From positions 54,440-118,439 of the forward strand of contig CAZYVU010000001.1 in assembly GCA_964651435.1 (NCBI GenBank): a stretch of DNA of 64,000 bases. The letters are read 5' to 3'. Within the stretch, counting starts at the first letter, position 1. Every line of letters starts with the position of its first letter. The notes beneath the pieces were generated by a model. That model did no database searches. It saw only the letters and a program-made list of their open reading frames with translations, and had not been told where the DNA came from. This document shows positions 23,488 to 26,463 of this stretch, piece by piece. Source of the stretch: an uncultured Pseudomonadota bacterium. GTDB lineage: Bacteria; Desulfobacterota; Syntrophorhabdia; Syntrophorhabdales; CAYQXL01. The position numbers and the translations under genes are program-made.

Positions 23488-23563
23488 GGGGCTGTAGCTC
23501 AGATGGGAGAGCGCTTGACTGGCAGTCAAGAGGTCGACAGTTCGATCCTGTTCAGCTCCACCA
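23488..23563 (+). tRNA. tRNA-Ala (anticodon GGC)
   Basis: Acceptor GGGGCTG/CAGCTCC with the G3:U70 identity pair, anticodon loop CTGGCAG, T-arm GACAGTTCGATCCTGTC, encoded CCA. Confidence 0.93.
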
Positions 23564-23660: not shown

Positions 23661-23865
23661 ATGGACCTTCCATTTTGCCCTTTCAGAGAGTCAAAACAAC
23701 AAGGCCCTCCAGTCGGTAAATCAAAGTTAGATAACAACTTCAGGAGCCGCCTCGTTACACTCGCGGCTTATCATGGTTTCCCACACGAAGCGCGAAGACC
23801 GAACAGGAAGCATTAGTGCGCGTCTTATGGACCGCAACGAGAGGGTGATCTATGAAGAAGGCTAA
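23661..23865 (+). pseudogene. Degraded BrnT-like (DUF497/COG2929) toxin remnant
   Basis: The 30-codon ORF 23773..23865 reads MVSHTKREDRTGSISARLMDRNERVIYEEG, matching my memory of the BrnT C-terminus (V.HT..D..IRIISAR.a...E...Y). It overlaps the next ATG by 14 nt. Upstream, another frame reads ..FRSRLVTLAAY (like ERWVTLG), implying a frameshift plus deletion. Confidence 0.45.
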
Positions 23866-24343
23866 GGCATCAGACGAACTCCGCCCGGAGTATAAGCGAG
23901 AAGACCTTGGAGTGGGAGTCCGCGGTAAGTATTTTGAGGATTATAGCAAGGGCACAAACCTCGTGCTTCTCAGCCCTGACGTGGCAAAGGCATTCTCTTC
24001 CGACGAAGCCGTCAATGAGGCCCTACGGTCTCTGATTGATCTGGCCGAAAAATCGACAGGCCGAACAGGTCATTCCACCGGATCGGCTACCATGGCAGCC
24101 GAAGCCACTATTGTGAAAGAGATTCGTCTGGACGACCTGAATAGTTTGATCGTGAGGCAAGAAGACGAGGGCACAGTTACCGTGGAAATTCTCCATACGG
24201 CAAAAAGAAATCTGGTCCGGAGATCTACATCAGGAAGCGGATTGGTTGAAGCCAGCCATATCAGAGCAGTTACGTTAGAAGGCGGTTGCCCACAATATTT
24301 GGTGACGATCCATGTCTGTCCCATGCCCCTTGCCCCTATATAG
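23852..24343 (+). CDS. Antitoxin-like protein (RHH-type N-terminal region) with an unexplained ~90-aa C-terminal extension
   Basis: The N-terminal ~70 aa (DELRPEY...GVRGKY....GTNLVLLSPDVAKAF.SDEAVNEALRSL) resembles small antitoxins encoded after BrnT-type toxins. The rest has no recognisable domain. Confidence 0.55.
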   Translation: MKKAKASDELRPEYKREDLGVGVRGKYFEDYSKGTNLVLLSPDVAKAFSSDEAVNEALRSLIDLAEKSTGRTGHSTGSATMAAEATIVKEIRLDDLNSLIVRQEDEGTVTVEILHTAKRNLVRRSTSGSGLVEASHIRAVTLEGGCPQYLVTIHVCPMPLAPI

Positions 24344-24399: not shown

Positions 24400-25182
24400 T
24401 CACCGGTGATTCGGCGATGGGTACTTCGTCATGAACCGGTCTGCCACTGCCAGAATCCTCGTATCCAATATTCCGGACACCCGCGTTGCTATGTCGACAG
24501 GAAGCGTTCCGTAATATGCGTGGGCGATCCCGCCGGCGATGCAGGCGATGGTGTCGGAGTCTCCGCCTATCGATATGGCCTTCCTCACCGCGTCTTCGTA
24601 GCCGTCGGATTCGAGGAACGCCGTGATGGCCTGGGGGACTGACCCATCGCAGTTGGACTGGTGCTTGTAGTAACGCCGTATCTCATCGAGGGGCTCGCCG
24701 AGATCGTAGGCAAAGGTACGCTCAGCGTATGCCCTGATTTCCGCCTTGCTCCTTCCGGTCCGGGCGAGGAAGACCGCCGACGCCACCGCCTGGGCGCCGC
24801 CGATAGCCTCGGGCGTGTTGTGGCTCGGGATGGCGGTGAGGCGTGCCTGGGCAAGCACTTCCTCCAGGGTGTGGAATGCAAAGCCGATGGGACTGACGCG
24901 CATGGCAGACCCGTTGCCTTTGCTGGCACCCTGCCCTATCCTTCCTGAGGCCGCCCACTTGCGGAAGCGCGGCCCATAGCCCCTCTGGGGATAGAGGCGA
25001 TACCATTCCCTGAGCTTGCCTCCGTAGTCCGCGTGTGTCAGAATCGCGTCGGCTACGGCAACGGTCATGACCGTGTCGTCGGTGAAGTGGCAGTTCGGAT
25101 CGAAGAGCGGAAAGTCTGTCCGCGTTATGTTGTTCAGCTCGTAGACGGAGCCGATGATGTCTCCTGCTATAGCGCCGAGCAT
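24400..25182 (-). CDS. ADP-ribosylglycohydrolase family protein
   Basis: In-frame part of ORF 24400..25227; start MLGAIAGDIIGS. Motifs FTDDTVMT, GNGSAMRVSPIG, and GGDSDTIACIAGGIAHAYYG (di-metal site). Confidence 0.9.
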   Translation of the reverse strand: MLGAIAGDIIGSVYELNNITRTDFPLFDPNCHFTDDTVMTVAVADAILTHADYGGKLREWYRLYPQRGYGPRFRKWAASGRIGQGASKGNGSAMRVSPIGFAFHTLEEVLAQARLTAIPSHNTPEAIGGAQAVASAVFLARTGRSKAEIRAYAERTFAYDLGEPLDEIRRYYKHQSNCDGSVPQAITAFLESDGYEDAVRKAISIGGDSDTIACIAGGIAHAYYGTLPVDIATRVSGILDTRILAVADRFMTKYPSPNHR

Positions 25183-25613
25183 AACGGCCTCCCTTCGTTG
25201 TCGGTCCCTTTCAGGCGCGCGTACCACTTCCCTTCCTCGTCGACAAAGTCAAGGGCGCCGTCATCGAGCGTCCAGAAGATGGGGCCCTGAAATCCCAGGG
25301 CCGACGTGAAGCCTCCCTCAAGGAAATACCAATCGACGGGTGGGCGATCATACTGCAGGCCGAGGGTCCTGAGACAGCCTATGCTGTGATTCAGATCGTC
25401 AAGGGACATGGCTGCCGTTGAACATAAGGACCCGTCCATGTCCCAGGCATCGCCCGTCTCCCTGAAGAAGGCAAGGATGTCGCCGTTGCATGCCTTCCGA
25501 AGGGCATCCATCTTCACAAGGAGTGTAAAGAAGACGATCGATATCCCGCCATTGGCAGGTCGGAGAAGAATCGTCCGGTCTTGCCGCGTGTCGTTGTTTT
25601 CTGGCGTTTCCAT
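25167..25613 (-). CDS. Hypothetical protein, translationally coupled to the ADP-ribosylglycohydrolase gene
   Basis: 148 aa with a GGGGGA RBS 4 nt upstream of the ATG. Its 3' end overlaps the ARH start by 16 nt. No domain recognised. Confidence 0.55.
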   Translation of the reverse strand: METPENNDTRQDRTILLRPANGGISIVFFTLLVKMDALRKACNGDILAFFRETGDAWDMDGSLCSTAAMSLDDLNHSIGCLRTLGLQYDRPPVDWYFLEGGFTSALGFQGPIFWTLDDGALDFVDEEGKWYARLKGTDNEGRPLCSAL

Positions 25614-25646
25614 GGCATCCCCCTGACATGATAGTCACCAGAAGAT

Positions 25647-25672
25647 AAAAAAACCGTCCAGGTCAGGACGGT
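25647..25672 (-). terminator. Intrinsic terminator inside the 5' leader of the 25613 gene
   Basis: Minus strand ACCGTCC-tgacct-GGACGGT followed by T7, ending about 33 nt upstream of the ATG. Confidence 0.75.
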
Positions 25673-25790
25673 CGGCAGAATGGAGAGCTTTTCGGGATTG
25701 TCTCCCGCACATCGGACGGCTTTCACCATCCAAGGCACCGTAGTCTCCAACTCGGTTGCCGAACCCCTTTCGGGGTTGCTCCTGATGCTG
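25673..25790 (-). ncRNA. Structured 5' leader (candidate riboswitch/attenuator aptamer region), class unassigned
   Basis: Lies between the promoter and the terminator. GNRA hairpin AACCCC-GAAA-GGGGTT (25762..25777). Hairpin CGGGA-gacaa-TCCCG (25693..25707). Possible closing helix TGGAGA/TCTCCA (25744..25749 with 25681..25686). The terminator 5' arm CCGTCC is duplicated at 25714..25719. Confidence 0.45.
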
Positions 25791-25794
25791 CAAT

Positions 25795-25824
25795 ACTGTA
25801 AATCCATCGGGGCAGGTAAGTCAA
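25795..25824 (-). promoter_or_regulatory. Sigma70-type promoter driving the leader and the hypothetical/ARH pair
   Basis: Minus strand TTGACT (25824..25819), 18 nt, TACAGT (25800..25795). The -35 and the following 11 nt are identical to the c3 promoter. Confidence 0.6.
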
Positions 25825-26007: not shown

Positions 26008-26463
26008 CTACTTCTTCCCTTCCTTTAGGCAGGCAATAGCGAACAGGACCTCTCCGGGAGTGTCCGGTTTGAATTGCGCCCAGTCGTCCTCGTCGTCCTC
26101 GAAGGACAGCAAGACGCTTCCCTGAGAGCTATAGGCCTTTAGAGATAACAGCCTTGCTGCACCCTTTTTGCAGTGTATTTCTGTAAGGCCGACCGTGTAG
26201 GCATAGGAACTGAAATCTCTTTGCCCTCCTGCTATCTCCTTGAGCCCGGCGATGTCCTTTTGCCTCTCTTCTTCGCTTGCCGGCGCCTGCTTATCGAGCA
26301 CCCTCACAGTATCTTCGGAGCGCCGCGAGATGCTTTCCTGGTCGTAGAAGAATGTCTGTCTCGCATTCTCGAAATACCTCACCCACTCCGCCCCCTCTGC
26401 CTCGGACCAGCCGGCGACAACGACCGTCATCACGATGATTGAAAGAAAGATTGCTCTCTTCAT
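26008..26463 (-). CDS. Secreted protein, surface-adhesin-E-like pattern
   Basis: Signal peptide (AGWSEAEG). Pattern W..Y......FYD..SI......V... then Y.......IHC......L....Y...G.VL......DDW....P.TPGE.L....C, which recalls the Adhesin_E-type family from memory. Confidence 0.6.
   Translation of the reverse strand: MKRAIFLSIIVMTVVVAGWSEAEGAEWVRYFENARQTFFYDQESISRRSEDTVRVLDKQAPASEEERQKDIAGLKEIAGGQRDFSSYAYTVGLTEIHCKKGAARLLSLKAYSSQGSVLLSFEDDEDDWAQFKPDTPGEVLFAIACLKEGKK

Follow-up and report, generated by a model that had tools for sequence, protein, structure and literature searches.

The window analysed here is a stretch of 64,000 nucleotides (nt) from a contig (CAZYVU010000001.1) of an uncultured bacterium of the Syntrophorhabdia, and it carries on its minus strand a pair of overlapping genes that encode a protein of 148 amino acids (aa) and a 260-aa enzyme of the ADP-ribosylhydrolase (ARH) superfamily. 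Upstream of the pair we identified a leader with the architecture of an S-adenosylmethionine (SAM) riboswitch of the SAM-I/IV class. Relatives are referred to as loci L001-L046 and proteins P00xx. In the direction of transcription the following features were found:

25795 to 25824, minus strand: promoter-like element (TTGACT, 18 nt, TACAGT), identified by a consensus scan as a pattern match only.
25679 to 25793, minus strand: SAM-I/IV aptamer (Rfam RF01725) with helices P1, P2, P3 and P5, an additional hairpin that resembles a P4, and a pseudoknot in which the loop of P3 pairs with the 3' tail.
25645 to 25673, minus strand: intrinsic terminator from a terminator scan, GACCGUCC-UGACCU-GGACGGUU followed by U7, with the hairpin at 25673-25652.
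25167 to 25613, minus strand: open reading frame (ORF) of the 148-aa partner protein with ATG start at 25613, based on the ribosome-binding site (RBS), homologues, an AlphaFold (AF2) model and the ratio of non-synonymous to synonymous substitution rates (dN/dS).
24400 to 25182, minus strand: ORF of the 260-aa ARH3-like ADP-ribosylhydrolase, based on PF03747, phrog_6572 and invariant active-site motifs.

The 148-aa gene is preceded by AGGGGGA, 4 nt ahead of its ATG, in agreement with the good RBS that an earlier sequence-only reading of this stretch had noted. The longest reading frame of the ARH gene opens at GTG 25227, but the homologues all begin with M[IL]GAIAGD, and the true start was therefore placed at ATG 25182, which has GGGAGG ahead of it. 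With this start the 16-nt overlap of the two genes given in the sequence-only reading is exact, and its view that the two genes are translationally coupled and preceded by a leader was borne out; the leader is structured. The next ORF downstream, of 163 aa, is convergent and the transcription unit therefore ends with the ARH gene. The 148-aa ORF is a real gene, as it has homologues, a low dN/dS and a confident structure model. RNAfold placed an additional hairpin (UCUGGUG...CGCCAGA; window 25600-25645, minus strand) downstream of the terminator; it encloses the RBS and start codon of the 148-aa gene and could provide translational control.

The leader and its relatives

The leader of the window matched the Rfam family RF01725 with 47.3 bits at a gathering score of 41.1, and the same family was detected above the gathering score at 11 further distinct loci with 42.4-55.6 bits. 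It precedes the small gene in L001, L006-L014 (nine loci that the search for small-protein relatives had yielded) and L043. Among 12 distinct riboswitch sequences, 12 of the 32 helix pairs showed a compensatory change in at least one sequence. The pseudoknot covaries as well (GGAGA:UCUCC, AGAGA:UCUCU and UGAGA:UCUCA), with three Watson-Crick pairs occurring at one position. A -10-like box (TAGAAT, TAAAAT or TACAGT) is found at the matching position in most of the aligned relatives.

The terminator hairpin and the U-run are kept in all 12 leaders. The CCUGAUG stretch of the terminator, which comprises its 5' arm and loop, can pair with the 5' strand of P1 and the junction J1/2 of the aptamer (CAUCAGG). 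This antiterminator covaries in four loci, where C is replaced by U in the aptamer and, in compensation, G by A in the terminator; exceptionally, L007 has six of seven pairs. The P4-like hairpin was also considered as the antiterminator and was rejected, because its pairing, judged by eye, is inconsistent in L017, and it is the P1/J1-2 pairing that covaries instead. By its sequence, the leader has the classic architecture of a transcriptional SAM-OFF switch, and the operon would be repressed by SAM. We infer SAM binding from the membership in RF01725 and from the conserved core nucleotides. Since the leader is of the SAM-I/IV type and carries a terminator, the module is probably tied to SAM depletion rather than being a self-contained toxin/immunity pair. 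In a literature search we found no paper that links riboswitches with ARH genes.

The hydrolase and its partner protein

The second gene had been read from the sequence as encoding an ARH-fold hydrolase, and Pfam PF03747 agrees with this at 131.7 bits (E = 5.7e-38, cutoff 26.2 bits), with the match spanning profile positions 3-280 of 287. A search against PHROGs returned phrog_6572 (E = 6.5e-56), and the closest relatives of solved structure are the vertebrate ARH3 enzymes, at E ~1e-14. The catalytic glutamate in GSVYE (E15) does not vary among nine homologues, and neither do the metal motifs TDDT and GGDSDT. GSVYE15, T34-D35-D36 and D208/D210/T211 align with the matching motifs of ARH3, which we take to be the catalytic glutamate E41 together with T76-D77-D78 and D314/D316/T317 of the binuclear metal site. 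Judged from these residues, the ARH looks catalytically intact and active as an ARH3-like di-metal hydrolase.

The enzyme could be assigned neither to DraG (NCBIfam equivalog TIGR02662, 50.3 bits against a cutoff of 337) nor to Tri1 (NF041672, 46 bits against 490). No draT or nif gene was found at any of the loci inspected, and no Tre1-like toxin, type VI genes or recognisable ADP-ribosyltransferase (ART) adjoin the ARH gene. That a transferase is not recognisable nearby had already been stated from the sequence and holds for the window as well as for the related loci, none of which has a linked one. The ARH subfamily comprises more than 8000 clusters at E ≤ 1e-20; the best 120 share 62-70% identity and have a length of about 257 aa, and viral relatives are 43-53% identical.

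For the 148-aa protein, which had been described as lacking a recognisable domain, searches of Pfam, NCBIfam, PADLOC and PHROGs were indeed all empty, and its 22 relatives gave no Pfam match at E ≤ 1 beyond noise, including SUKH and Imm families. A word-index protein search retrieved only two relatives, even with a profile of 22 sequences, and an exhaustive search of representatives was required. This profile search of 1.84 billion representatives matched 28 proteins to the family, two of them spurious; P0014 and P0024 were rejected as relatives, as they are long repetitive proteins that match one stretch of 40 residues many times. The family thus consists of about 26 cluster representatives and is rare and undescribed, with homologues that reach down to 23% identity. 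The dN/dS of the gene is 0.09-0.25 in unsaturated pairs and therefore points to purifying selection.

An AlphaFold model of the 148-aa protein based on 22 sequences reached a predicted local distance difference test score (pLDDT) of 88.2 and a predicted template modelling score (pTM) of 0.81; an earlier model from three sequences (pLDDT 52.7) was set aside. The model shows an alpha/beta domain whose core is ferredoxin-like (beta-alpha-beta-beta-alpha-beta) and which has one hairpin at the N-terminus and another at the C-terminus. Foldseek returned no match to this model in PDB or BFVD at E ≤ 1e-3. The weak matches, to Cas2, PII, ACT and MoaE, are generic ferredoxin-like with template modelling (TM) scores of at most 0.31, and the sequence profile of the domain did not match any PDB sequence. 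The protein is accordingly described here as having a new predicted fold, with sequence and modelled structure unmatched in PDB and BFVD.

These results also bear on the roles that the sequence-only reading had considered for the partner, together with a structural search for an ART or SUKH/Imm fold; this search gave nothing at the above threshold, and only the weak ferredoxin-like matches appeared. A divergent transferase with an R-S-E or H-Y-E motif was discarded, as no ART is among the top Foldseek matches of the pLDDT-88 model, and so was an immunity-type protein, as neither Pfam nor the fold search yielded a SUKH or Imm match. From that reading, a regulator of the ARH survives as an option. 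Within the family L63 and D94 are invariant and K34, W57, Q87, D118 and L134 nearly invariant, and no His or Cys is conserved. This sparse conservation would suit a binding domain better than an enzyme. A DNA-binding domain was not detected by Pfam in the 148-aa protein or its relatives.

Linkage, partner exchange and genomic surroundings

A conserved linkage of the small protein with ARH genes, which had been proposed as a check by gene neighbourhood, was found: in all relatives with downstream sequence except P0026 an ARH of the same subfamily lies directly downstream, be it adjacent, overlapping or fused. The two genes overlap by 1-16 nt in the window, L001, L007, L009, L012/L013, L040-42 and L043. 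L001 encodes a 57%-identical relative in syntenic position, and L040-42 and L043 are two-domain relatives with the ARH directly downstream. In Syntrophorhabdaceae the small protein and the ARH are fused into one protein of 394 aa (HOE16630.1, HQM80775.1), which was found on seven contigs including the independent assemblies L006 and L011.

About ten relatives bear the 148-aa domain C-terminal to another undescribed domain of about 130 residues. This N-terminal domain (residues ~1-130 of P0013, P0016-P0018, P0021-P0023, P0026 and P0029) has a motif of roughly kGNxRTkxSYxHxSIPlxFiNRA ... ivEIVnDeEF ... IPEak and does not belong to any Pfam family. Three of these proteins have sequence past the gene (P0018, P0022 and P0026), and in P0018 and P0022 the ARH is directly downstream. 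The fusion, the adjacency to ARH genes and the second N-terminal domain argue for a modular 148-aa domain that works with ARH.

Six ARH homologues were inspected that had been picked irrespective of partner, and in two of them (L017 and L021) a SAM-I/IV riboswitch heads the operon:

L017:1120-2850 (also L018 and L019): SAM-I/IV riboswitch (48.3 bits), a Cys-rich protein of 252 aa and an overlapping ARH gene.
L021:1704-5553: SAM-I/IV riboswitch (48.7 bits), proteins of 250, 83 and 107 aa, the ARH gene and an overlapping gene for a 254-aa protein.

The partners in L017 and L021 are unrelated to the 148-aa family and to each other, with the exception that the 202-aa protein of a further locus (L015_202) is 42% identical to the 252-aa protein of L017 (L017_252). 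None of the alternative partners in L015, L017 and L021 belongs to a Pfam family, apart from a weak zinc-ribbon match among the L021 proteins. In L015 (L015:3427-5294) the 202-aa Cys-rich homologue precedes an ARH with a C-terminal extension of 160 aa, and this module is located behind an HSP70-TPR gene and has no riboswitch. Downstream of the L021 operon there are an HD_4 gene and an AAA_5 (MoxR-like) gene. Close ARH homologues also occur without any partner; a rough neighbour-joining tree intermingles such solitary ARHs with those that have one partner or another. The ARH is thus the constant part of these modules, and the partner proteins are exchanged.

The surroundings of the pair in the window and of related ARH genes are as follows:

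Window 23488-23563, plus strand: tRNA-Ala(GGC), with the ARH gene ending ~840 nt away.
Window 23852-24343, plus strand: the 163-aa ORF, convergent with the ARH gene and found only in the near-identical contigs L002-L004.
Window 26008-26463, minus strand: 151-aa protein with a match to Adhesin_E (Pfam PF16747, E = 4.9e-12) and a hydrophobic N-terminal stretch.
L006: rve transposase and tRNA.
L014: IS21.
L016: RelE and a helix-turn-helix (HTH) protein.
L017: Mrr and AbiEi.
L020: ParE/Phd and HicB.
L022: IS91 and a group II intron (L022:912-1197).
L040: IS200-type transposase and a group II intron (L040:2032-4956).
L046, plasmid pSDCE1 of Sulfurospirillum diekertiae (NZ_CP059996.1, 16877-17626): an unannotated ARH frame with 46% identity, at a position for which the PLSDB table lists no gene.

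Going upstream from the riboswitch promoter, the Adhesin_E gene comes first, and it is kept in the near-identical contigs. On the other side, the stretch between the tRNA-Ala gene and the module holds one 163-aa ORF in the window versus three other genes in L001, which suggests that it is a variable insertion hot spot. The 163-aa ORF had no family match in Pfam, NCBIfam, PADLOC or PHROGs. The sequence-only reading had placed the pair in an AT-richer stretch next to a decayed toxin-antitoxin remnant, and neither description was upheld: the GC content of the pair itself is 0.56-0.65 and only the flanks fall to 0.49-0.53, and the 163-aa ORF lacks a match to any toxin-antitoxin domain. The group II introns, which carry a reverse transcriptase/maturase, and the IS200/IS91-type transposases immediately adjoin ARH modules in L040 and L022, which are unrelated to each other. 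The ARH frame of L046 is located between a restriction endonuclease/DUF4268 pair and a convergent gene of the Sir2 family, near AbiEii.

Possible function and comparison with known systems

We propose that the module consists of an ARH without a transferase of its own and of an adaptor or regulator subunit, that it is induced on SAM depletion and that it likely has a role in conflict or stress, and we would give this proposal an even chance of being correct. The unit would be read in the order promoter, SAM-I/IV riboswitch, terminator, 148-aa gene and ARH gene. At high SAM levels the aptamer would lock P1 and the J1/2 strand, the terminator would form and transcription would halt before the genes, whereas at low SAM levels the P1/J1-2 strand would pair with the CCUGAUG stretch of the terminator and allow read-through. 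Both proteins would then be produced together via translational coupling. The ARH might clear ADP-ribose off a target on which a transferase of host or invader, encoded at another site, has acted, and the 148-aa protein might be a subunit without catalytic activity that, bound to the ARH, either directs the enzyme to its target or gates it. We infer this binding because of the obligatory adjacency, the natural fusion, the modular reuse and the few conserved polar residues, and likewise the ARH substrate and the purpose of the module. If the SAM pool collapsed, e.g. through SAM-degrading enzymes of phages, this could serve as the alarm that turns on the eraser.

We lean towards a role in conflict or stress because the ARH subfamily is mobile, swaps partners and occurs in defence-island-like settings, and because of a published prediction that host systems called ARG-centric, which lack a transferase and are off by default, act against ADP-ribosylation by viruses (Iyer, Burroughs, Anantharaman, Aravind 2022; PMC9503650, section 3.8). 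In a more specific scenario, a sudden loss of SAM, as brought about by phage SAM lyases or hydrolases that disarm restriction-modification and BREX, would derepress a mobile cassette whose ARH, guided by exchangeable adaptors, strips the ADP-ribose added by the invader, resulting in a riboswitch-sensed defence or counter-defence; we regard this scenario as conceivable and rather unlikely.

Several observations weigh against the proposed adaptor-assisted, SAM-controlled ARH. The antiterminator of the window forms only five of seven pairs, or 6 bp in a shifted RNAfold register, and is weaker than in the relatives. The gene pair of P0018 (L040-42) has no riboswitch, and downstream of P0026 (L044), on a short contig, there is no ARH start within the remaining 122 nt. 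The viral ARH relatives had no Rfam match at all and hence no riboswitch, viral contigs and plasmids did not contain any relative of the 148-aa protein or of its two-domain cousins, and no PADLOC model matches the ARH or the 148-aa protein. There is no linked transferase in any locus inspected. Finally, SAM riboswitches normally govern methionine and SAM metabolism, which favours a metabolic role.

It is these usual targets of SAM riboswitches that favour the main rival explanation, a metabolic switch of the DraT/DraG type, for which we see a limited chance. Here, ADP-ribosylation under SAM sufficiency would turn off a methionine/SAM enzyme or another SAM-dependent process, the ARH would reactivate it at low SAM levels, and the small protein would be a binder that senses a metabolite, like the PII protein GlnZ for DraG. 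Besides the SAM-OFF leader, which is a signature of the methionine/SAM regulon, this explanation can draw on the chromosomal location of the pair in the window and L001, beside serA, a HAD hydrolase, an acyl-CoA ligase and a tRNA, on the precedent of the DraG-GlnZ complex (PDB 3o5t is among the ARH relatives) and on weak fold matches of the 148-aa protein that include PII and the ACT domain of aspartate kinase. However, these fold matches are not significant (E of at least 0.065, TM of at most 0.31), the ARH fails the DraG equivalog, and no transferase or methionine gene is linked at any locus. Moreover, the ARH subfamily is patchy, horizontally shuffled and found near mobile and defence genes, which would be unusual for a core metabolic regulator.

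Alternatively, the pair could act on a small molecule. The ARH would then hydrolyse a ribosyl or ADP-ribosyl compound of SAM/methionine salvage, e.g. an alpha-ribosyl by-product, with the small protein as a second enzyme or a carrier. Salvage operons are regulated by SAM riboswitches in other bacteria. In addition, the positions of F143 and Y149, presumably the aromatic residues that stack on the adenine in ARH3, are occupied by Ile and Lys in an alignment with mouse ARH3, the second of them varying among relatives, so that this ARH may have a ligand pocket distinct from the one in ARH3. ARH3-type enzymes are further described in a passage of PMC9503650, by way of its citations, as accepting small molecules such as O-acetyl-ADP-ribose. 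On the other side, neither His nor Cys is conserved in the 148-aa protein, which shows no residue constellation of catalytic appearance, a salvage gene is never adjacent, and in thousands of settings the same ARH (63-70% identity) has unrelated neighbours and no riboswitch. We regard this explanation as improbable.

A toxin/antidote pair appears more doubtful still. The small protein would in this case be a divergent ADP-ribosyltransferase toxin that is reversed by the ARH, or an immunity protein or antitoxin against a harmful ARH. The overlapping two-gene layout in an accessory stretch would fit, and toxin-antitoxin pairs of ART and ARH have been described, such as the DraT/DraG-like pairs in phages (PMC9503650). 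Yet no ART fold was detected even though PDB holds many ART structures, a SUKH or Imm match is absent, and the natural fusion of the small protein with the ARH is poorly compatible with such a pair. Close ARH homologues stand alone without any partner, and the ARH is therefore probably not intrinsically toxic.

Least probable of all is that the leader only resembles SAM-I/IV riboswitches and senses another adenosine-containing ligand (S-adenosylhomocysteine, ADP-ribose or NAD+), with the operon answering to its own substrate or product: although its scores exceed the gathering score by a modest margin (42-56 versus 41.1 bits), J1/2 reads CAGGAG in 12 of 12 leaders as opposed to CAAGAG in the Rfam consensus, the extra P4-like hairpin is present in all 12 and ligand-changed variants are known in other riboswitch classes, the J1/2 position varies also in the related SAM-IV class, and the segments that we take to contact SAM in SAM-I structures (GCAACC and GGUGC in P3, A-U/U-A pairs in P1) are all retained.

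Both the riboswitch class and the enzyme superfamily are already known; new are their regulatory coupling and the partner domain. If the proposed SAM control is true, the reversal of ADP-ribosylation would be coupled to how much of the universal methyl donor the cell has, a link that was not found in the literature searched, and the module would be an unusual addition to the SAM regulon. Our analysis further defines a new protein domain that works with ARH and is sometimes fused to it, and it describes a widespread bacterial ARH subfamily (> 8000 clusters; 63-70% identity) as a conserved core that exchanges its partner proteins. This raises the questions which targets are ADP-ribosylated when SAM is replete, and whether a fall in SAM acts as an alarm signal.

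The ARG-centric systems (PMC9503650) are among those described previously that come closest to the module. They likewise contain an ARH without a linked ADP-ribosyltransferase or sirtuin, and they share the off-by-default state, variable and tightly coupled partners on a conserved enzymatic core, a patchy distribution and conflict contexts. They differ in their repressor, which is of the Nudix or WYL type as opposed to a SAM riboswitch with terminator, and in their trigger, which is ADP-ribose as opposed to the falling SAM proposed here. A phosphatase is coupled to ARG-centric systems and not to the module described here, and their TY chaperones and ARPP are unlike the new partner domain; correspondingly, no Nudix/WYL-HTH repressor, rhodanese-type or other phosphatase, TY chaperone or ARPP was found in the window or the related loci.

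With DraG and the PII protein GlnZ, a system that reverses the ADP-ribosylation of nitrogenase, the module shares an ARH-fold hydrolase, a small alpha/beta partner and a metabolic signal. However, the ARH fails the DraG equivalog (50.3 versus 337 bits), there is neither DraT nor a nif context, and the partner is not PII, the Foldseek match to PII being not significant (probability 0.30, TM 0.30/0.45). Furthermore, the metabolic signal would act on the mRNA via the riboswitch. Tre1/Tri1, a type VI toxin with an ARH as immunity protein, has in common with the module an ARH fold able to undo the ADP-ribosylation performed by another protein, and stand-alone ARH relatives could protect against foreign toxins. 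The ARH of the window reaches only 46 of the 490 bits required for Tri1, no Tre1-like toxin or type VI genes adjoin it, and its partner lacks a transferase fold.

Human and other vertebrate ARH3 (ADPRS) shares with the ARH the catalytic glutamate in GSxYE and both Asp/Thr metal motifs, but has about 350 residues compared with 260, and its adenine-stacking aromatic pair is not kept. The context differs as well, as the ARH described here is bacterial, partnered and under the control of a putative riboswitch. This leader has the same P1-P3, P5 and second pseudoknot as those of the classic SAM regulon (RF01725) and the same OFF platform via an intrinsic terminator. Whereas the classic regulon controls the biosynthesis, transport and salvage of methionine and SAM, the genes that follow the leader here encode an ARH and proteins without assigned function.

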